Shown: positions 7,781-27,370 of the stretch, piece after piece
Layout: the number at the start of each line of letters is the position of its first letter
Numbering within the stretch: position 1 is the stretch's first letter
NCBI GenBank assembly: GCA_951406725.2
Contig: OX597825.1
Span: 46,686,001-46,750,000, forward strand
Direction of reading: 5' to 3'
Source: Octopus vulgaris
Lineage: Eukaryota
Length of the DNA stretch: 64,000 nucleotides
Position numbers and translations under genes: made by a program
The notes under the pieces: generated by a model
Told to the model about the DNA's origin: nothing
The model's input: the letters and a program-made list of their open reading frames with translations, nothing else
The model's database searches: none

Positions 7781-8598
7781 AGTAAATTGTTTTGTTTTTT
7801 TTTCTTTTTAATTTTTTCAATCGTGTTCTCTAGTCTGATTTTGTAAAATGGTGAACACCGTGAAGGCAATAAAATATTTCTTTAACCTTATAAAATATCC
7901 TTCTACAAATTTAACTACATTTCGTAATATTACATTTATCTTTATAAATGAAACTTCTCCTATACTAAATAGGAAATATACATAGTTGATACCATACCCC
8001 CACAGTTTACACAGGTAGAGTAGAATAGTTAATGGGCTGTTGTGTAGATAGATATATGTTTGTGTGTGTGGCTGGGTGTATGAATATATGGCATTCATTC
8101 CATATAACTCGACAAAATCAAAACATTTGATGGTACTTGTCTATTGTCGTGGTCCCGGTTACGCGCGCGCGCCAGACGTAGGTACTCGATACTCGAGATC
8201 CTGCGAGGTGACTTGCGCATGCGCAGTGCAGAATTCGCGTATGCGCGTTACCCCCCCCCTAAAAAAAAAGGTGTTGGATTTCACTAAAAATATATATGTG
8301 TGTGTGTATATATAACATTTTCAATTTTACACAAAAAAATTACATAGTCGCTTTCCTCGCGGATTTACAGATAAATGAATTAATTACTATTTTACAGAAT
8401 AAAATTAATGAATTAATTATATAAATTAAATAATTCTTGAAAATTAATTAATATTAATAATATTTTTTTGAACAAAGTAAATAATTTATAAAACTTGGTT
8501 AATAATTTTTTTTACACAAACGCGAACGTATATAATTTGTGAAACTTTTTTTTTTTACAGACGTATATAATTTGGTAAACTTAATGAATTAATTTCTT

Positions 8599-9023
8599 AT
8601 CATCATCATCATCGTTTAACGTCCGTTCTCCATGCCAGCATGGGTTGGACGGTTCGACCGGGGATCTGGGAAGCCAGAAGGCTGCACCAGACTCCAGTCT
8701 TATCTGGCAATGTTTCTACAGCTGGATGCCCTTCCTAACGCCAACCACTCCGAGAGTGTAGTGGGTGCTTTTTACATGCCACCCGCACAGGTGCCAGGAG
8801 AGGCTGGCAACGGCCACGGTCGGATTGGTGCCAGTCGAGGCGGCTCTGGCATCGGCCACGATTCGGATAGTGCTTTTTACGTACCACCAGTCCAGGGGTC
8901 CTGGCATTTGCCGGGTGCCACACTTGCCCCAACATGTCTTCGCAAGCAAAGGGGGTTGGCGTGGGTGCCTGTCGTGGGATGAGGTTCGATATCAACTTCG
9001 CTTGCCTCAACAGGTCTTTGTGT
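8599..9023 (-). mobile_element. RTE-LINE 3'UTR copy inside the left TIR
   Basis: Matches the 3'UTR of the RTE at 43739-44280, with internal deletions; (CAT)n tail. Confidence 0.85.
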
Positions 9024-10029
9024 ATAAATGTATAAATTTTTCGCACTAAATTCTTTCCGTAGAATTTATCAAAAAACGCGCAAAATTATTCCGTAGAATT
9101 TATCAAATTAAAAAACGCAAAATTAATATATTTTTTGAAATTGCAAATTATTTAGAATATAAAACAAATGAAGTTAAATTTTAAAAATAAATGTCATATA
9201 CTTATACTCTGTAAGGTGCTGTGTTCACACTTCAATTTACTATTTTCTAGAAATGTTGCTTTTCTAATTGAAACAATTTTTCTCAATCTCCATTTAAAAG
9301 TCCATAATGCCTCTTGAGCCATATCAAAATGAACAACTTTGAATTACGCAGCGGTGGTGGTGGTGGTGTGAGGTTCTAATTTTTTTTTCTGATCTCTCTT
9401 TGCCCCCTCTTTATCTCGCGCCTAATTTTTGTTGTCGCGGGAAAAGATGAACGATTTAAAATAAATATATCTTAATTGTAGTGTGAGAAAGTATATATAT
9501 TCTGATGACAAAATATATTATCTTTCAAAAACATCCCAAATTTATAGACTATATCGTGTAGGTTTAAGAAATATATATATATATATATATATATAAGAGA
9601 ATGAAACATCTTTCATCTGTCTCCCCACCACACCTCCATCTAGGGGGGCAAAGAGAGATCAGAAAAAAAATTAGAACCTCACACCACCACCACCACCACC
9701 GCCGCGTAATTCAAAGTTGTTCATTTTGATATGGCTCAAGAGGCATTATGGACTTTTAAATGGAGATTGAGAAAAATTGTTTCAATTAGAAAAGCAACAT
9801 TTCTAGAAAATAGTAAATTGAAGTGTGAACACAGCACCTTACAGAGTATAAGTATATGACATTTATTTTTAAAATTTAACTTCATTTGTTTTATATTCTA
9901 AATAATTTGCAATTTCAAAAAATATATTAATTTTGCGTTTTTTAATTTGATAAATTCTACGGAATAATTTTGCGCGTTTTTTGATAAATTCTACGGAAAG
10001 AATTTAGTGCGAAAAATTTATACATTTAT

Positions 10030-10448
10030 ACACAAAGACCTGTTGAGGCAAGCGAAGTTGATATCGAACCTCATCCCACGACAGGCACCCACGTCAACCC
10101 CCTTTGCTTGCGAAGACATGTTGGGGCAAGTGTGGCACCCGGCAAATGCCAGGACCCCTGGACTGGTGGTACGTAAAAAGCACTATCCGAATCGTGGCCG
10201 ATGCCAGAGCCGCCTCGACTGGCACCAATCCGACCGTGGCCGTTGCCAGCCTCTCCTGGCACCTGTGCGGGTGGCATGTAAAAAGCACCCACTACACAGT
10301 GGTTGGCGTTAGGAAGGGCATCCAGCTGTAGAAACATTGCCAGATAAGACTGGAGTCTGGTGCAGCCTTCTGGCTTCCCAGATCCCCGGTCGAACCGTCC
10401 AACCCATGCTGGCATGGAGAACGGACGTTAAACGATGATGATGATGAT
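10030..10448 (+). mobile_element. Mirror copy of the same RTE 3'UTR insertion in the right TIR
   Basis: Same junctions and same internal deletions as 8599-9023. Confidence 0.85.
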
Positions 10449-11003
10449 AAGAAATTAATTCATTAAGTTTACCAAATTATATACGTCTGTAAAAAAAAAA
10501 AAGTTTCACAAATTATATACGTTCGCGTTTGTGTAAAAAAAATTATTAACCAAGTTTTATAAATTATTTACTTTGTTCAAAAAATATTATTAATATTAAT
10601 TAATTTTCAAGAATTATTTAATTTATATAATTAATTCATCAATTTTATTCTGTAAAATAGTAATTAATTCATTTATCTGTAAATCCGCGAGGAAAGCGAC
10701 TATGTAATTTTTTTGTGTAAAATTGAAAATGTTATATATACACACACACATATATATTTTTAGTGAAATCCAACACCTTTTTTTTTTAGGGGGGGGGGGG
10801 GGTAACGCGCATGCGCGAATTCTGCACTGCGCATGCGCAAGTCACCTCGTAGGATCTCGAGTATCGAGCACCTACGTCTGGCGTCGCGCGCGCGAATTCG
10901 CGTGTGAGAAACCGGGACCACGACAATAGACAAGTACCACATTTGACTTTGTGTATTTCCGTACCAAATGACAGTTGCCAAATTGGGAGGAGGAGAAGAA
11001 AGC

Positions 11004-11428
11004 GGCGATCTTTCGTCTCTAGTAGACCTTTCCGTCGATTTCCGTAAAAAAATTTTTTTTTTTACATATGGGTTTGCGGGAACTTTTGAAGTAATATACA
11101 TACATATACACATACACCGAGTAAAAAATTTCAGTTATCTCTTTCTTTCACACATTACTCTGTCTCTTCACACATACTAACAGAAGCACTTCACTTACAC
11201 AACATACTGTCTGTCTCCCACACCCCATCAAACACATACACACACACACACATGTACATCAATGCTTCCCATGCACGGTAACTTCAAAAGAATTTCCCTC
11301 GTCATACAATCGCTTTCTCTTAGTCTCTTTCGCTCTCATCACTTCAAAAGTTCCCGCAAGCCCATATGTAAAAAAAAAAATTTTTTACGGAAATCGACGG
11401 AAAGGTCTACTAGAGACGAAAGATTGCC
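11004..11428. mobile_element. MITE with about 85-bp TIRs and an 8-bp TSD (Merlin-like)
   Basis: TIR ggcgatctttcgtctctagtagacc... / ...ggtctactagagacgaaagattgcc; TSD aagaaagc at 10996-11003 and 11429-11436. Confidence 0.85.
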
Positions 11429-12123: not shown

Positions 12124-13065
12124 TATGGCTAGAGGTAATGGTCCATATCAGCTTACCAGACCTCCATAAGATTGTTGAAGAGCTCATTTTACCAGACGAA
12201 ACCAGACTTAGAATTATTGTGGAAGGTAGACCTCCACTATGTTTTGCATGTGGAGTAAGGGGTCACATGAAAGCCAAGTGTCCCCAGAAACACGAACAGG
12301 AGGAGGCAGAGAAAGAGAGTCGGGAAGAAGAGATTGTAACGGCAGAGGAGGAAAAGGAGTTTACAGTGGTAGAAAGGAAGAGAAAAAACATTGAATATCC
12401 ACCTAAAAAGAAAAGAAAAGCGGGGGAAAATAAGAATGAAAAAGGAAAAAATAAGGTATCAACAGGAAAACGAACACAAAGACTAGAGCCTTCAACAAGC
12501 ATGGAGGAGGAAAAACAGAAAAGACTAGAAAGTGAGAAGGAGCAACAAATAGAGATGGAAACACTAGCAACATGGGCAGAGTGCGAAGTGATAGAGCTGA
12601 GAAAGCCACCGAAGGGGAAATACGAAAGAGTGATGGTGCAGTACGGAAAGAGCGTGGAAATAGAGAAAAGAATTTCCAAGATGAAAGGCGTAATAAGGAT
12701 TAAGCTGGCTAACAAGGTGGAGAACCTGAATATGAAAGCTGTGTTGCTGGAAGATGAGAGAGCAGGAAGATTGAGAGAAATATTTGGAGACATGATACAA
12801 ATAACAGCATTCTGATTTAGATATGACGAAATGCCATCAGTGATAGAATTTGAGGAGTTAATAGATTTTTTGGTGTGAACACGATACAAACTGGAAAATA
12901 ATTACTGATTTTGAATAACATTAAAATGCAACTTCCTACTTTGGGGGGTAGAAAAGCCATTTCATTTTCATTATTCTCATAATTCATAATTCCTTCATTA
13001 TATGTTTGTATGTACCCCACCTTTTGTGTTGTCTGTCCTTGTGGTGTCCCCTCTATGTTATGGCC
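12124..13065 (+). mobile_element. ORF1-only non-LTR element, copy A (5'-truncated; Tx1/L1-like ORF1 with CCHC knuckle)
   Basis: ORF 12138-12815 has VEGRPPLCFACGVRGHMKAKCP and a basic/acidic tail. A short 3'UTR follows directly, ending gtctgtccttgtggtgtcccctctatgtt. No EN/RT. Confidence 0.7.
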
Positions 13066-13243
13066 GTAGAAAGAGTGTCATGTAGAGCGAGCTGAAATTA
13101 TCGGTAGACTAGACGTTGAGTTCTGTTGAGTTGAGTCGTCGGATGTGAGAGTTCGGTAGTTGAGTAGAGGTATGTTATTGGTGAAGGTACGCCATCTGAA
13201 CATGCAATATAACAGTGGCGACGAGGTTTCGAATAGTACTGAA

Positions 13244-16200
13244 ATGGAAGAGTTACTGAAAGTAGTTGTCAAACAACAAGAGCAGCAACAGCAACAACTA
13301 CAGAAGTTAATAGAATTGTTACTGCAGTTGAGAAATACGACCGAATCATTTTCAGCAGACAGTGTTGCAAATTCCATCAAAGAATTTCACTACAAACTGA
13401 ATGAAGGAACTATCTGTACTGCATATTACAGACGATAAGAACATTTATTCTGAGAGAAATGCAAGGGATGGTCTAGTGAAAGGAAGGTAAAACTTCTTTT
13501 GCGAAAGCTTGCCTCTCCAGAACATGAAAGTTTTTGTAACTTTATTTTGCCGAGAAAACCCACGGAATTATGTTTTGATGAAACAATAACTATTTTGACT
13601 AATATTTTTAGTGAGAAAAGTTCACAGTTTAACATTTGGTGGGGATGTTTAAATTTAAAGAAAAACGAGTCCGACAATTTTGTAACATATGCCGGTAGGC
13701 TTGCGAAAGATTTAAGCTGGAAGAATTAATGCCAGATATGTTCAAGTGCCTAATATTCATTAAAGGGCTGGTGGCAATGGAAGATGTGGAAATTAGAAAA
13801 AAAATATTAACCTTGCAGAAAGTGGCTGAGGAATGCTGACAAATAATAAACTTTTGAGATGATACAAGAAAAATAGAAGACAATAATAAGAATGTACGAA
13901 TGTGTAAAGAAAGTATAGATAGAAGAAAACATATCAATTCAAAATGGTGGTATGGTTGCGGGGACCGACATTTGAGGAAAGATTGCCTCTTTAAAGATAA
14001 AACCTGTTTTAAGTGTGGTAAAATTGGGCATATACAGACGAAATGCTGGTCGAAGAAAGTTGTAAAACCAAAGAAATTCTGCTCAACAAAAATAAATTAT
14101 ACCATACAAAATCGAAAATTTGTGTTGGTAGAAATAAATGATTTTCAGACCAAAATGAAATTAGATACCGGCTCAGACGTATCGATAATAAATACAGCAA
14201 CATGGAATAAGATAGGCAGGCCGGTGTATAAAAAAACTACTAGGATAACTCACGGTGTGTCAGGGGAACAGGTTCAATTCTTGGGCAAAATTTCACCAGA
14301 AATAAAACTTAAAAACATGATGCGGAAAAGTAAACTAACGGTATCTATGACTACAATGAATCTGTTTGGGACAGATTTGATGGAAGAATTCGACCTGTGG
14401 GATTTACCACTGAATACACTATGCAATAAGGTGAATGTGTCACAGTCTGTGTCAGAGAAAGCATCGAAAAAATTGAAATTAAAATTGAAAAAGATGTACC
14501 CTATGTTTTCGAAAGAACTCGGTATGTGTAAAAAAATCAAAGTAAAGTTTGAGTTGAAAGAAAATGCAGTGCCGGTGTTCAAACTGAAAAGGGATGTACC
14601 TTTTGTGGCATTAAATCAAGTTGAGAAGGAATTACAAAGACTGGAAGACATAGAGGTAATTGAAAAAGTAGATTACTTTGAGTGGACGGCTCCTACTGTA
14701 ATTATAAAAAAGAAGAACAACGAAATAAGAATATGTGCGGACTTCTCAACTGGTCTTAATGATTGTTTAAAAAATTACAATTATCCGCTTCCAAACCCAG
14801 AAGAAATATTTGCTAAGTGTAATGGTGGGAAAATTTCTTCCAAGCTGGATTTGTCAGAGGCCCACCTCCAATTACTGGTAGATGAAGAATGTGCTAAAGT
14901 ATTAACAATCAATACTCATAAAGGTCTCTACCATTTCAAAAGACTGCCATTTGGGGTTAAGGTTGCACTAGCAATATTTCAGCAAGTGATGGATACAATG
15001 CTAGCAGATTGTGAGTTTGCGGTCCCATACTTGGATGACAAAAGGGAATCAAAAGGGAATCAAGGGAACAAAATATTGAACATATAGAAGAGGTTTTCAA
15101 ACAGATAAGCGATTACGGGTTTAAAGTAAGTGAGGATAAATGTGAATTTTTCTTGACAAAAATAAAGTACTTAGGACAGTTTATCGATGAAAACGGTTGA
15201 AAACCGCACCCTTCTAGGGTTCACACGATAAAAGAAATGCCTCCTCCCACTAACAAAACAACATTACAAGCATTTTTAGGTCTGATAAATTATTACCACT
15301 TATTACCTAAAATGTATGAGCTAAGAGCTCCGTTGAACAAGTTGTTAAAGAAGGACTCGAAATGGGACTGGACAAACGAATGTCAGAAAGCATTCGAGGA
15401 ATTAAAAAAGCGGTTAACATCAGTTATCATAAACTCATTTCGACCCAAACCTGAAAATAATTGTGGCATTGGATGCCAGTGAATATGGTATAAGAGCTAT
15501 GATATCGCATACATTTAATGATGGTAAAATCAAAGCTATTGCACATGCATATATGGTATGATTTGTTCGAGGTCCCAGAACCAAAAGCAGAATCAGAACC
15601 GACATGTAGGTCAAACAGGAAGAGAAAACCTACAGAAATGACGGAAATTAATGCTAAGAGAAAAAGATATGCCCCAGTTTCTCACCAAGGAAATAAAAGA
15701 GTTCTATTACCAGCGGAAAGAAACTACAGCCAGATTGAAAAAGAGGCGTTATCATTAATCTTCGCAGTAAAAAATTCCATAAATTCTTACATGGGAGGAA
15801 GTTTACACTGCAAACGGATCACCGACCATTACTGTCTATTTTCAGTTTGAAAAAGGGTATCCCACATGCTCAGCAAACTGCTTACAGTGCTGGTGGACTG
15901 CCCTGTTGAACTTCGATTTTCAGATGGAGTTTTTGCCATCATTAAAAATGGGACACGCAGACGGGTTGTCGAGGCTAATTCCAAAATATGAGGAACTTTT
16001 TGAACACATGATGATTGCATCGTTAAAACTTGAAATAGAACTGAAGAACATTTTGTGCAATGTAGTACATGATTTGCCGGTAACGCTGGAACTAATTAAA
16101 TTGGAATCAGGAAAAGATAGGTTCATAAACAAGATTGAAAAAATGTTGAGTAACACGAAAAATATAAATGAGCGGGACGCAGGTTCAAAGCACTACTCAG

Positions 16201-17260
16201 TATGTGATGAGGTATTATTATATGCACAATGAGTGGTAATACCTGAAGTGCTGCAATACAGAGTATTAAAAGTAGGGCATCCAGGGATTGTCCGGATGAA
16301 GAGCCTCATGAAGAGTTACATTTATTGGCTGAATATGGACAAGCAAATTGAGAGACTGGTAAAACAGTGTAGGGGATGCGCTATGGCAGCAAAGCCACCC
16401 CCACCCCCGTGCAGATTCATCCGTGGCCAAAAATGGATTCGGCATGGTCTAGACTGCATGTGGATTTCGCAGGACCAATAAATGACTCTCATTATATCAT
16501 TGTGGTGGATAGCTATTCCAAATGGCCAACCACAATTGACTTCTTGGAAGAATTATTCACTCGTTATGGGGTGCCAGATACGATTGTCAGATAATGGTAC
16601 ACAATTCATGGAGAAGGAGTTCGAAAGATTCTGTAAGTCGGTTCAAATGAACCATGTATTAACTCTGTCATCCCATCCAAGGTCAAATGCGTTAGCGGAA
16701 AGATTCGTCAACACATTCAAGAGAGATTTAAGAAAGACCAGATGGGAAACACTTGAAGATACAAAAATGACGAAGTTTTTGCAGGTGTATAGAATAACAC
16801 TGAATCCAAATGTAGAATAGAGTAGGTCACCTGCAGATTTGATGTTTTCTAGAAAAATTTGTTCTACTTTTGATAAATTGTTGCCGAGTAGGAAACAGAA
16901 AATAGAAAATTCGGGAAGAAAAACGAAATCTTTTAACACGGACGATGAAGTGTATTTTGAAATATATAGAAACGGAAAACAGGACTGGGAACAAGGGACT
17001 GTAACTGTACGTCTGGGTAACGTGATGTACATAGTAAAAGGATCAAAATATGATCCCAGAAGGCATATAAACCAATTAAAAAGCAGATATACCAAAACTC
17101 AAGAGAGGCGAGAGGAACCAATGGATATATGGTATGATTTGTTCGAGGTCCCAAAACCACAAGCAGAAGCAGAACTGACACGTAGGTCCAACCTACAAAA
17201 ATGATGGAAATTAACACTAAGAGAAAAAGATATGCCCCAGTTTCTCACCAAGGAAATAAA
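13244..17260 (+). pseudogene. Gypsy gag-pol (gag CCHC, protease, RT, RNase H, integrase), disrupted
   Basis: CFKCGKIGHIQTKC; LDTGSD protease; RICADFS, RLPFG, YLDD RT; NYSQIEKEAL RNase H; GHPGIVRMK, HVDFAGP, SDNGTQF integrase. Order PR-RT-RH-IN, with multiple stops and frameshifts. Confidence 0.9.
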
Positions 17261-17345
17261 TTTGGGTTTAGAAAAAAAAAAAACTCTCAAAAGGGGGAAG
17301 TGTTGTGTGGATACCCCCAGACGATAAGTAGGCTAGTCCAATACA

Positions 17346-17354
17346 TATATATAG
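17346..17354 (+). promoter_or_regulatory. Putative TATA box of the Gypsy LTR
   Basis: tatatatag 45 bp into the LTR. The other Gypsy LTR in the window has tataaatag at a similar position. Confidence 0.45.
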
Positions 17355-17380
17355 TGGATGTGATAGCTAGACAGGCGTAG

Positions 17381-19057
17381 CATAGAACCACCTTTCGTTG
17401 TATCTTGATTTCGCTCACATGTGAGTTGTTGCTTTGTTAATTTGAATTGTGGAATTGTTGAATTGTTGAAATTGTGATTGTTGAATTTGTAATTTTTTGA
17501 ATTCGTTGAAGATTTTATTTGGCTTCCCCATTTATGGGGGAAGCAGTAAATAATGAAACTATGAACACGCAGACCCAGACAGGCAGTTATGCTGCGGTGA
17601 CACGCAAAAGCCTGACCGCGAAGCTACTGCAAATACGGGAACTGGAAGTGAAAGATATTGATTACAAAAGGTTTGATAACCTGTTGAAGAAGGAAGGAGA
17701 ATGTTTGAGACTGACACCCCACAAAGAAATAACAGAGAAGTCGGAAAGGAAAATAATCACTAACTGAACGCTGAACATAAATACAAGAAAAGTAGAAATA
17801 GCAGGTGTTGAAGAAATAGAGGAGTGTTTGAAAGAAGTTAAGGAAGTGACGACTTTCTATAACAGAAGATGAAAATTTGGCACGGTGGAGGTATGCTTCG
17901 TTAATGAGAACAAAGCAAAGAAGTACTCCACCGTAGCTTTAAAATCAGTACAGTGGACACTCTTGCCTACTTACTGTGGCAGACACGCAGCCAGAGTGAG
18001 GATAGGGAGAGTGTTACCCGAAATTAACGGAGACTGGCTTGTGACAGCCATCCTCTACAATACAGAGGAGAAAGTAGAGATACTGAAAATATTCAAGACA
18101 GTGGAGGTCAACTGGTGGGGGTATGGCCTAGAAGTGATGGTACTTATCAGCCTGCCTGACCTCCACAAAATGATAGATGAGATAGTGCTACCTGATGAGA
18201 CCAGGCTGAGAGTCATAGTGGAGGGTAGCCCACCATTTTGCTTCCAATGTGGAGTAAGGGGGCACATGAAGGCAAAGTGTCCCCAGAAACATGAACGGTG
18301 GAGGAGGGGCATCAAATGGAAGTGAATGTAATATCGGAGAGGGAAATAAAGTTTACAGTGGTGCAGAAGGAAGGAAATAGTGAATCTCCACCGAAAAAGA
18401 AAAGGAAGGTGGAGGAAAGGAAAAAAGAAAAAAAAGAAGAAATGAAGAAGCAATGGAGGATTGAACTCAAGAGCCGGAACCTTCAATGAGTGGAGGGGAG
18501 GAAGGACAGAAGAGACAAGAAAACGAACAACAAACAGAAATGGAGACACCAGTTACTGGTGTAGAGAGTGAAGAAATACAGCCGAGAAAGCCACACAAAG
18601 AAAAACATGAACGATTATCAGCAGTGTATGAGAAAAGTGTGGAAATGGAAAAGCGTATAGCAAAAATGAAAGATATAATAAGAGTGAAATTAGTAGATAA
18701 TGAAGAGAACCATATTATGAAAGTAGTGCTACTTGAGAACGAAAGAGCGGCAAGACTAAAAGAGACATTTGGAAGTAGAGCGGAAATTACAAGAAAGCGG
18801 TTTCAATATGATGAATTGCCACAGTGGTAATGTATACAGACTTAATACCTTATGCAATATAAACATGATGCATACTGGACAAAATCATTGATTATAAAAA
18901 CAGTAAAATGGGATTTTCTACTTTGTGGGGTAGAAAGTCATTTCATTATTATAATTTCACCCTTCATAATTCATTCGTTAATCATTTTATGTACTCTACA
19001 TTTGTCTTTGTAATGTCCATTCTATAAAAAAGGCTATATGCCTATAATAAAGAGAAA
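17381..19057 (+). mobile_element. ORF1-only non-LTR element, copy B (apparently full length, disrupted)
   Basis: 5'UTR, then a reading frame from about 17519 (SYAAVT...FGTVEVCF...LLPTYCGR..RVRIG...VEGSPPFCFQCGVRGHMKAKCP) to about 18860, 3'UTR and aataaagagaaa end. About 1.7 kb, no RT. Confidence 0.75.
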
Positions 19058-20644
19058 GCATAGAGCAATTCAATTGTATAATGGAGAACTTGAATACCTT
19101 GAGCCAGAGCTATGCAGCGGTGGCCCTCGTTAACAGTGATGGACGTAAAGGTAGAAACAGACAGAATTAAAGAATGTGGAAAATTGTCAACGAATCAAGG
19201 AACAGCACTCTCTTTGGTACTGCCAAAGGAATTTTTGTAAAGTTTACAAAAAAGAACGGTCCTGTATAAGACTTTAAGATTATCCACAAGAAAAATTGAA
19301 ACCACAACGACTGATGTAGAAAAAGCACTCAAAGATATTAAATACCTGACGACTTTTGTAACAAGAAGTCAGAAGCTCGGAGTGGTAGAAGTCCTGTTCG
19401 CATCTGAGGAAGTAGCAGCAGAGCGTGCAGTAGACGCGATTAGGAATGACGAGTGGGCTTTCCTACCGAGTTACTGTGGGAAAAGAATGGCGAGAGTAAA
19501 GGTGGGTAAAATCTCACCCGAATACGACGAGACGTGGATTATGGCGGCAGTCTTGTTCCATGTGAAACAGAGTCTGAAAATATTAAAGGCAACAAGAACT
19601 CCAAAGTTGAACTTATGGGCTAGAAATGAAAATTCAAGCCACCCTGGAAGACCTGAATTCCATAATTGAAGAAATAGTACTGCCCGAAGGAAACAAGCTG
19701 AATGTGGTGGTAGAGGGCAAGCCTTTGTAATGTGTTTTGTGTAGCAAAAGAGGACACAAAAAAAGCGGACTGCCCTCAAAACAAGGAAAAAGAGAGGGAG
19801 GAGAGTTCGACGCAGAGAGAGGCAAACGTGGTGGAATGTGTAGAAGGAACTGAAACAGTGGATACAAAAGAGGAATTAGTGGAGGTGAAACCACGGAAAA
19901 GAAAATGTAGAAGGGGTTCTCCACCAGAGAAGCTCAAAAAGAAAAAAGAGGCGATGGGAAGTAACGGAGAAAAAATGGTGACAAGAAAAACAGAAGAGGA
20001 AAGTTTGAAAATTTCTCCTCCGGAGGTGAGATTGAAGAGAGGTGAAGTAAAAAGGAATGAAAGAGGAGGTGAAAATCAGATGAAGAAGAGATGGTATTAT
20101 GTAGAGTACCATAAGAATATACATACGGAAACAGAGATCCTGAAAATGAAGTCAGTAATATGGGTTAAATTACCTAAGGATGGTACTAAAGCAATAATAA
20201 TAGAACTGAATTGCTATGAAGAGTTGAAAAACAGGTGCGACATGGGAACGGTACAGTTTGAAGTTGAGTTTGAAAAGGTGGAACCAGTAATCGACCGGAG
20301 TGATGTGATACCGCTAATAAAGGGCTGTCCTTCAGATAGCCCTCTGTCAATGGATAGCGAGTAATAAGACTGTTTTTATTGGAAAGACAATGCATCAGGA
20401 ATCCGATGTGGACCGCGGGATAATACATGGATTGGTGACTTGCAATGGTATGTTACATGTTAGTTAATTGTTATTTAAATATCCGATAATAATTGATTGT
20501 AAACAAGATTAATGGTACTGTATGTGATGAGGGGCATATGCAACCATTCATAATTTCATTATTATATAATCATTTCATTCATATGCGTTCTATGTATTGT
20601 CCCTTCTGTGGTGTCCTGTCTGTCCTTGTTTGTCCCCCTCTATG
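19058..20644 (+). mobile_element. ORF1-only non-LTR element, copy C (divergent subfamily)
   Basis: ATG 19081 MENLNTLSQSYAAVA; LGVVEVLF..FLPSYCGKRMARVKVG; CVLCSKRGHKKADCP; ORF ends 20364; tail gtctgtccttgtttgtccccctctatgtt. Confidence 0.7.
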
Positions 20645-20759
20645 TTCAGTTCTGTTGAGTTGAGTCATTGGAAATCTGAGTTCAGTAGTTGAGTAGAGGT
20701 ACATCATTGACAAAGGTACGCCTTTTGAACGTGCTATATAACAATACACACACACACAT

Positions 20760-24599: not shown

Positions 24600-24830
24600 G
24601 TTTCTTTATTACCCACAGGGGGCTAAACATAGAGGGGACAAACAAGGACAGACAAATGGATTAAGTTGATTACATCAACCCCAGTGTGTAACTGGTACTT
24701 AATTTATCGACCCCGAAAGGATGAAAGGCAAAGTCGACCTCGGCGGAATTTGAACTCAGAACGTAACGGCAGACGAAATACAGCTACGCATTTTGCTCGG
24801 CGTGCTAACGGTTCTGCCAGTTCGCTGCCT
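24600..24830 (-). mobile_element. Full-length tRNA-derived SINE with a 19-bp TSD
   Basis: Head ggcagcgaactggcagaacc, B box gagttcaaattcc, central gcctttcatcctttcggggtcgataaattaagtaccag. TSD tatgaagtaactgttatct at 24581-24599 and 24833-24851. Confidence 0.9.
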
Positions 24831-24843
24831 TATATGAAGTAAC

Positions 24844-27370
24844 TGTTATCTCCAACGATAAGTCTACTATATTACTATTTGTCGGAAGTGAGCCACTTCC
24901 GGTTTGCATCTGGCATCGAGGTTGTTTTGTTTCCAGAAAAAGGGGTGAGGTCCCTTTTTGTGTCCATCTATATCTCAGAAAACCCACTGTCATCGCTGAA
25001 TGTTCTTCTCTGGTTATTTCATGTTACTGCGAACATGGTTTTGTACCATTGCTGCTTCCAGAATGATGAACTGACAAAGTTTTTGTAAGATAATTTTAAT
25101 ATATCTAGTTGTTTTCCTTACATTAACCTGAGACATATAATGAGGCATAGATAATTGTATATCCATAGGTGAAAGTGTTTCAGTGTATGTATCATTTTTT
25201 CCTCACTCGGTTCTTTTCACCCACGTGTGTATCAGTTATAATAAACATGTTAAATGTATTTTGCAATCAAACTTTGTCACAAGAAAGCTGTATATCAGGA
25301 AGTCAAATATCAGTAAAACCCTGTTCAAATAATTTTTATCTTAGTTTGTCTTATTTTGTAGTTTTCTTATTTTGTAGTCTACCATACACTTGCGATACAT
25401 TTGTATATACACGCAGTACACCTGCATGATGTTATGTACGAGAAGAAAATAAATGGCTCCAAAAAATGAAAACCAATGTTTGTCTTTGTTATCGCGGTGG
25501 TGATTGTGACCCCACTTGCCTAGATTTCTACATGAAGCAGCAACAGTAGAAAAAATTTTGCATAAGACTCCCAAGTCATTGAAAAGCAGTTGAAAAGTAA
25601 AGTTGGTGTAGCAATGACCAATCACCGGTTAAAAAGGTTAGTCGTCAAGTCATATCTAACTTTGTTACTATGTCACCCCCTGTAGTTACAAATGACATAC
25701 ATAAATTATGGAAATTGGAAAACGAGGGGATTAATGAAGTTGGTTGGTCACAAGATGATCATTCAGTGATTGAATTATGGGATACATTATAAATGAAACC
25801 AAACAGTTCCAGATATTTATAGAAAATAAAGTTAGTCTTATCAGAGAAGGGTCACAACCTGATCAGTGGCATTATGTATCAAGCAGAAACAATCCTGTGT
25901 ACATTGTTAGTCAAGATCTGGTGTTTAGCAGGTTAGATAGCAAGTTTGGTTCGTGGACCCACCTTCTTGAGGCAACACAAAACTAATGAATGGCAACCAT
26001 ACAAGAATATTGGGGAATTGTTATTGGGTGAGATGGAGATCAGAAAAAACCCAATTAGGATGTGCAATACTCTTCAGGTAGGTAGTATGAATCCTACAGA
26101 TGAGCAAAAATATGTGTTGAAGAAATCCAGCATGCATAGTTGCCTCTGATCATGAGAGCTCAGCAAATACATTATGAAGATGAATTAGATAGATTATTGA
26201 GAAAAAATGTATCAGCAAATCCAGTCCCTCAGGTCACTCCACCCGTTTCTGGATGATGCTAGTATTCTCAGGGTAGGTGGTAGATTGGTTGAGTCTACAG
26301 CTGAAATCAAGAATCTGGTTATAGTGTCAGGTAAACATGTCATTACTGAGTGTATTGCTGCTCATTTTCACAGAAAAGCTCATGTAGGGAGAGAATGAAC
26401 TTTATGACTTATCAGACAGCATTATTGGATTACAGGTGACAGATCTGTTGTCAAGAAAGTTATCTGTTCATGTGTTGTTTGTAGGAAGTTATTTGCCAAA
26501 CCAGCTTCTCAAATTATGGTAAATCTACCCAGGGAGAAAGTTGAATCAGATAAACCTCCATTTACATACATTGGTGTAGATGTCTTTGGACATTTCATGG
26601 TCAAAGTCAACCGTTCAGAAGTAGAGCATTATGGTTGTATGTTCACATATCTTGTGACTAGAGCAGTACATATTGAGATGTTACATAGTTTAGACACCAA
26701 ATCTTTCATCAATTGTTTTCGCACATTTATATCTAGAAGGGGTCACCCAGAGAAGGTTTACTCAGACAATGGTACAAACTTTGTTGGGGCTACAGCTAAG
26801 TTAAAAAGGGGTTTACAGGAGTTATCTTAAACCGATATCCAAGCTTATGCATTGAATTGAAACATAGATTGGCTTTTTAACCCACCAGCAGCTTCTCATA
26901 TGGTGGGGAGCTGATGTCAGGAGAAAACACTCCAAGGAATTTATGGTCTATGGCAGTAGTACAGGAGGTAGTGAAAGAAAGAGACGGACATGTTAGATCT
27001 GTTAAGTTGAAAACTAAGTCTAGTCAATTAGAGTGACTGATTACCAGAATTATTTTACTTGAGGGTGCTGGTGAGTATCTGAGTAAATAGTTGTACTGTT
27101 GCAGTGTGTCTGTTATCTGTAGAGTCAATATTTATATTTCTTTTGCATTGTTCAGAAAATACCCCATGGTTTATGGAGGTGGAGTGTTATCTCCAATGAT
27201 AAGTCTACTGTATTACTATTTAGTATTAGTTTTCACAACTTGTCGGAAGTGAGTCACTTCCAGTTTGTATCTGGGATTGAGATTGTTTTGTTTTCAGAAA
27301 AAGGGATGAGGTCCCTTCTTGTGTCCATCTATATCTCAGAAAATCCACTGTCATTGCTGAATGTTCTTCA
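24844..27370 (+). mobile_element. Internally deleted BEL/Pao LTR retrotransposon
   Basis: LTR starts tgttatctccaa at 24844 and 27185 (about 180 bp shared; 3' LTR truncated), with a purine tract before 27185. RNase H end QWHYVSSRNNP; integrase PFTYIGVDVFG..TRAVHIE..FISRRG..YSDNGTNFVGA. Confidence 0.85.

Follow-up and report, generated by a model that had tools for sequence, protein, structure and literature searches.

ORF1-only retroelements of Octopus vulgaris probably borrow the machinery of L1/Tx1-type LINEs and show an apparent preference for insertion behind TATA-like boxes

HeT-A elements encode only an ORF1/gag-type protein, form head-to-tail arrays and use reverse transcriptase (RT) supplied in trans; they are telomere-specific, carry a long 3′ untranslated region (UTR) and make no target duplication. 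The mammalian HAL1, as described in the consulted part of PMC5753468, is a non-autonomous L1 derivative that encodes ORF1p only and arose more than once. According to excerpts from PMC4494074, which also name Tx1-Mar, Tx1L resides in Tx1D, and Tx1-8_Crp and Tx1-4_AMi in long terminal repeat (LTR) elements; Tx1 elements mobilise SINEU families, occur as tandem copies separated by duplications, for which read-through transcription from the target was proposed, and owe their target choice to the sequence specificity of the endonuclease. In TRE5-A of Dictyostelium and Ty3 of yeast, insertion is position-specific and set by the TBP-containing TFIIIB, and TRE5-A ORF1p interacts with TBP, Brf1 and Bdp1 (PMC5911963, in part). 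Furthermore, the consulted section of an octopus repeat annotation lists active L1-Tx1 families without their targets or ORF1 (PMC13282606). Here we analyzed 64,000 nucleotides of the Octopus vulgaris genome (contig OX597825.1, positions 46,686,001 to 46,750,000; hereafter, the window), where both LTRs of a decayed Gypsy element are interrupted by ORF1-only units named A, B and C, and we examined their relatives in the 2.8 Gb genome, in which loci are numbered L###. The family of A, B and C likely consists of HAL1-like derivatives of Tx1/L1-type long interspersed nuclear elements (LINEs) whose insertion is anchored to a TATA box or start site. Specifically, the ORF1-only elements probably borrow the endonuclease and RT of such LINEs, which would make its cut some 30 bases past a TATA-like box, where transcription is predicted to begin.

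The positional preference was examined at 54 junctions that were single or first in an array. Fixed filters kept 43 of them, and the 11 that were dropped comprised 4 with a low score, 6 of low complexity (including the real-looking L174) and 1 with a short flank. A TATAWAWR match (at least 7 of 8 positions) begins 22–40 bp upstream of the target duplication in 35 of the 43 junctions. When the flanks were collapsed conservatively into 16 unrelated clusters, 12 had the match at −40 to −22, where 3.6 were expected (p 2e-4), and other windows of the same scan gave 1–6 of 16. The near-identical L101 and L102 (dS 0.03) have unrelated duplications, each with a TATA at −40 to −22, and the same was observed for the near-identical L131, L132 and L133. 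In pooled 5′-truncated copies of the complete type, TAAA/TATA starts at exactly −28 in 7/16 (scan-corrected p 0.0003) and within −30 to −26 in 8/16 (null 1.6; scan-corrected p 0.005), the correction covering all 217 positions. When truncated copies were anchored on the element's 3′ end, 6 of 10 had the core at exactly −28, and imperfect boxes missed earlier came to light. Being dead on arrival, such copies carry a bias that reflects insertion and not later selection. Decoy duplications were rare (0/173 and 2/180). As for the LTR in the window, the TAAA of its box sits 28–29 bp ahead of the duplication start in 22 of the 23 LTR copies scored, and this site is likely an instance of a broader preference, for positions that follow a TAAA/TATA core by about 28 bp.

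The occupants of the two LTRs are listed in Table 1. The initial annotation of the window, made from the letters alone, was right that these units carry only ORF1-like frames and that the 3′ LTR is truly interrupted. However, it set the break at 17380, and LTR homology continues to about 17386, with the duplication at 17374–17386. It also correctly ended unit A at the same LTR site, except that the 'ggccgtag' preceding 13070 belongs to the 3′ end of A itself, equal to the unit tail in L067, and resembles 'ggcgtag' at 17374 by chance. The description of every unit as SYAAV, RRM-like region, CCHC knuckle and 3′ UTR fits unit B, but unit A has lost its 5′ half and with it SYAAV and most of the RRM region. 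Units B and C are interrupted by stops and frameshifts, and C has lost its own tail together with about 45 bp of the LTR. A and B are 69% alike and, as had been noted, differ mainly at third codon positions (9/2/30 over 57 codons), and C is far more distant than these two are from each other; by these comparisons, A, B and C are three independent insertions. Among the matches listed, the two closest relatives of A, L065 (84%) and L076 (91%, over 322 bp), both lie in another target, and C is nearest to L020 (78%), which occupies an LTR of the same family as that in the window. Unit B is 83% alike to L063.

Genome searches with the LTR tail and head recovered uninterrupted LTRs of about 220 bp. 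A count of empty versus filled copies, which the initial annotation had proposed, gave 24 empty and 6 filled LTRs among the best 30 genome matches to the tail, the filled ones being the window's own, L002, L004, L010, L020 and L026; an ORF1 unit is therefore not present in every copy of this LTR. In filled copies, an AATAAAG-A-rich tail is joined to one common LTR position, and the left junctions of L004, L050 and L063 stop about 15 LTR bases further on, indicating that the insertion site was duplicated. Repeated use of one LTR site was thus borne out by the filled copies and by the duplications of the window (Table 1). Separately, a 150 bp piece of the Gypsy 3′ end is duplicated into the pol region (15545–15697 and 17121–17260, 90–94%).

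Table 1. Features of the interrupted Gypsy element and its ORF1-only units (window coordinates).
Feature	Position	Strand	Basis or remark
Unit A, 3′ half of ORF1-only element	12124..13072	+	End of RRM region, CCHC knuckle, C-terminal part, 3′ UTR; tail partly deleted
Unit A-interrupted 5′ Gypsy LTR, downstream part	13073..13214	+	Opens with right target-duplication copy; LTR tail ends 13214; head missing
Right target-duplication copy, A/LTR junction	about 13073-13087	+	AAGCGTCGCGTAGAG-type duplication
Primer-binding site directly after 5′ LTR	from 13215	+	Sequence
Decayed Gypsy internal region and polypurine tract	13215..17300	+	Knuckle, protease, RT; integrase-like frames by eye only
3′ LTR head	17301..17373	+	LTR comparison with genome copies
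TATA-like box	17346..17353	+	TATAAATA in most copies of this LTR family
Decayed left copy of target site duplication	17374..17386	+	About 15 bp, AAGCGTCGCGTAGAG type
Unit B, full-length decayed ORF1-only element	17387..19054	+	SYAAV, RRM region, CCHC; AATAAA at 19046-19051
Target-duplication remnant between units B and C	19056..19065	+	Comparison with L067
Unit C, divergent decayed ORF1-only element	19066..20643	+	Tail deleted
Remaining 3′ LTR tail	20644..20743	+	82% to 13115-13214

The protein of unit B gave 12,007 candidates in the genome, of which the best 150 were scored. Young copies have an intact ORF of 455–477 aa, a short 3′ UTR, an AATAAA tail within about 330 nt and no ORF2, as the annotation of full copies as ORF1-only elements had anticipated, and they stand alone or form 1.8 kb tandem arrays in which subfamilies are mixed. 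Of 183 ORF1 blocks examined, 85 had a tail within 1.3 kb and no ORF2, 31 had an ORF2, 1 was intermediate and 66 lacked a callable tail. The hallmarks of retrotransposition are present, namely an A-rich AATAAA tail and a target duplication, the latter measuring 11–21 bp in 39 of the 43 kept junctions and reaching the 26 bp cap in the other 4. The ORF1 aligns to autonomous L1-group ORF1 over RRM-RRM-CCHC at 22–29% identity, with VEGRxPxCxxCxxxGHxxxxC conserved. A structure model from a 24-row alignment reached pLDDT 82.7 (a single-sequence model only 35.7); its best PDB matches were tandem RRM proteins (E about 2e-4, with low TM), the CCHC knuckle follows this tandem RRM region, and L1 ORF1p was absent from the rows shown in the fold search, which gave no sign of descent from mammalian L1 ORF1. 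A protein search with a young ORF1 yielded no match at E<=0.001, and a metagenome scan yielded no relative. As a lead only, an Atlas comparison pointed to CCHC and ZCCHC3-type RNA-binding clusters (0.90–0.93), and a link between ZCCHC3 and Tx1 was not found in a literature search.

Core dN/dS was 0.04–0.34 in 35 of 36 pairs of nine ORF1-only copies, the last pair being saturated. The ORF1 is under purifying selection, and these values suggest that ORF1p probably has to act in cis. In a tree of 50 intact ORF1s, which leaves out the broken units of the window, 28 ORF1-only rows formed one clade (100/100, branch 1.02) and 5 formed a second, both apart from the 17 autonomous ORF1s. Given this long-branched clade and the separate smaller one, the ORF1-only copies are old lineages rather than fresh deletions.

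A candidate autonomous partner with the same tail, as the initial annotation had expected, was found among complete L1-group LINEs. A zf-RVT search of the genome placed many of the best 150 scored matches in open frames of 1125–1148 aa, and the complete copies that were fetched encode a CCHC ORF1 and an intact EN-RT-zf-RVT ORF2 of that length, with human L1 ORF2p as its nearest solved relative (E 4e-66). By its features, an APE endonuclease, an RT, a C-terminal zinc-binding domain and this nearest relative, the partner belongs to the L1 group. Its putative assignment to the Tx1 type follows from its architecture and from the L1-Tx1 families listed for an octopus. The complete LINEs end in a tail of the AATAAAGAAAT / GGGTAATAAAGAAAT type, shared with the ORF1-only elements, and one of them, L131, lies in a target shared with the ORF1-only arrays L092 and L110. 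From the shared tail and shared target, we infer mobilization in trans. Note that L134–L136 (G000:C2:73.04-73.07 Mb) hold tandem arrays in which the complete 5.4 kb LINEs are nearly identical, at one repeat target, which suggests recent activity. In addition, a minus-strand short interspersed nuclear element (SINE) at about 24600–24850 of the window has a LINE-type GGGTAATAAAGAAA tail and a 19 bp duplication, with no TAAA at −28, suggesting that complete LINEs may also move this SINE family.

The targets extend well beyond this Gypsy LTR. Among the 30 closest ORF1 matches of unit B, only the window and L063 adjoin the LTR, and L067 has the LTR duplication between its units; at most 3 of 30 are therefore tied to it, and the specificity for this LTR that was initially supposed was not upheld. 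Insertions elsewhere fell into two more Gypsy-type LTRs, hit at a like position (L070, L184), into LTR-like repeats that contain CCAAT boxes (L109, L154), into Penelope-like repeats, SINE heads and unique DNA, and at the 5′ ends of further ORF1-only units. The commonest class was a Penelope-like terminal repeat (L103, L146, L155, L156, L211-L229). This label is presumptive, being taken from what we regard as a hammerhead-like core after the duplication in 16 of 49 junctions and from a below-cut-off GIY-YIG match; an Rfam search found neither a hammerhead nor any other family in the target flanks. ORF1-only units and a SINE were inserted 6–15 bases into SINE heads (L066, L069, L077, L035), a zone that is likely a Pol III start region without a TATA. 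At L096 and L171, the duplication of about 30 bp contains the TATA box itself, leaving the downstream unit with a box of its own. Independent insertions at L102 and L133 lie behind the same TATATAAACGGCAG / CATATAAAACGGCAG motif, presumably a Helitron-like 5′ end.

Several results weigh against insertion at a set distance from a TATA box. The −40 to −22 window was picked after the data were seen, the genome is A/T-rich and the samples are small best-hit lists. A looser rule, fixed beforehand for 5′-truncated complete-type copies, failed (3/9, p 0.22) in a set where 9 of 40 copies were kept (14 ran past the fetched edge, 10 had no duplication, 6 no tail and 1 was of low complexity); a distance independent of site sequence thus appeared in the cluster scan and the −28 peak and not in this test. 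In a check likewise fixed beforehand, 9 of 20 new ORF1-only loci were kept and 5 of these had the box (p 0.02), all 9 belonging to one known target class. A further mined set gave 3/11 under a sharper rule (p 0.04), after 13 of 194 tails had been kept (85 used before, 94 with no duplication, 2 of low complexity). The SINE sets were small and not significant (1/3 and 1/6 with a box), and such a box is lacking in one-half of the truncated copies and in 4 of the 16 clusters. The spacing thus appears, by these counts, to be a preference in about half of events and not a strict rule. If there were no positional rule at all, a weak preference for open or A/T-rich DNA would combine with a few amplified repeats and post hoc windows to produce the TATA signal, and the failed test, the null SINE results and the small samples fit such an account; we consider it improbable, however, since the single-base peak at −28 survives correction over every position scanned, the clusters were collapsed conservatively and decoy duplications are rare.

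Rather unlikely, though better placed, is a sequence specificity of the Tx1 style, whereby each family's endonuclease reads one repeat, targets near promoters are selected and ORF1-only copies inherit the target of their mover. Some families do keep to one repeat, as sequence-specific Tx1 families do (the L146 family with five copies, L139-L141, L144/L210), the B- and C-type relatives L063, L067 and L020 sit at this LTR site, and published examples include Tx1 families with a preference for Mariner or LTR elements (excerpts from PMC4494074). Nevertheless, the single autonomous family of L131, L132 and L133 has three unrelated duplications and is not bound to one target sequence. Moreover, the truncated copies that form the −28 peak lie in unrelated unique flanks and, because they are dead on arrival, selection for promoters cannot explain it. 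A third view, in which the Gypsy LTR carries the ORF1 units as passengers or as a fixed part, or in which complete LINEs gave rise to them by simple deletion, is very improbable and largely refuted. The 83% likeness of B and L063 is close to the divergence between LTR copies, and some filled LTRs could have been co-amplified; against this, most of the LTRs counted are empty and the units in the window's two LTRs differ from each other, with saturated dS, in agreement with the initial view of independent insertions rather than an LTR-copied passenger. The placement of ORF1-only copies in long-branched clades under purifying selection likewise argues against simple deletions.

In the preferred reading, TATA-anchored insertion with borrowed LINE machinery, ORF2p acting in trans would place its first nick in the template strand where the duplication begins, about 30 bp past the initial T of TATAAA and at the predicted start, and would carry out target-primed reverse transcription of the ORF1-only RNA from that nick. 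The usual distance from the start of TATAAA to the transcription start is about 30 bp. The duplication would restore the site, so that later copies could accumulate head to tail. Full-length copies would gain the captured promoter and be transcribed from it, and the AATAAA of the element would cut the host transcript short. Such promoter borrowing would not be universal, which is a further point against the reading, because the L131 family has a TATA in its own 5′ UTR. This complete family (L131, L133, L150) carries CCTATATAAAG there, possibly a captured promoter. The spacing could come from tethering to bound TBP/TFIID, a putative contact to which we give slightly less than an even chance, or from a direct recognition of the A/T tract by ORF2p, which fits the same data and seems unlikely. 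We favor tethering because the boxes used include CATAAA, TTTAAA and TATATA variants, because some ORF1-only copies (L066, L069, L077) lie a short way into SINE heads at a putative position of the TBP-containing TFIIIB, and because TRE5-A and Ty3 provide a precedent (PMC5911963, in part).

Upstream of the element, nested inverted repeats at 8131–10939 form a palindrome of about 2.8 kb, with arms of 613 bp and 204 bp that are 100% complementary; it may be a fold-back element, a recent inversion duplication or an assembly artefact. A MITE-like element with terminal arms 96–97% complementary lies at 11004–11428.

Prior work has described ORF1-only derivatives, the insertion of Tx1 elements into LTR elements, and insertion at Pol III genes that is positioned by TBP, and the octopus families may already be named in Repbase. 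In a literature search whose scope left aside Repbase reports and most subscription papers, neither an account of these families nor a LINE group positioned by TATA boxes was found. If true, the TATA-distance rule would be a logic different from endonuclease sequence specificity and could explain the apparent targeting of many unrelated transposons; since intact partners and intact ORF1-only copies coexist, it is directly testable. The large, selected and apparently young ORF1-only system also offers an entry to why ORF1p is kept in cis, and through this family one class of transposon may disarm LTR and Penelope-like elements.

Unlike HeT-A, the octopus units are interspersed, short-tailed and bounded by duplications. 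Their ORF1, with tandem RRM and CCHC, also differs from that of HAL1, mammalian L1 ORF1 being of another type. They resemble HAL1 in being ORF1-only and having more than one origin, with at least two ORF1-only clades here, but differ from it, as far as described in the consulted part of PMC5753468, in the abundance of young intact copies, in forming tandem arrays and in targeting by position. Like Tx1 elements, they involve an L1-group LINE that inserts into other transposons, including LTR elements, and tandem copies separated by duplications; in the excerpts from PMC4494074, however, each Tx1 family has one target sequence, whereas here one family enters unrelated sequences that share their distance to a TATA-like box. 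The insertion may resemble that of TRE5-A and Ty3 in being position-specific rather than sequence-specific, although the targets of these two are Pol III genes, TRE5 inserting 44–54 bp upstream of tRNA genes in the opposite orientation and Ty3 using an integrase (PMC5911963, in part). In the octopus, an animal host, the sites are of TATA type, insertion is downstream and in the same orientation, and the protein contact is putative. More tentatively still, we propose that an animal LINE superfamily, complete and ORF1-only, putatively tethered to TBP or the pre-initiation complex, may insert base-precisely at TATA-promoter starts, capture and silence transposon promoters and build arrays, as a Pol II counterpart of TRE5 and Ty3.

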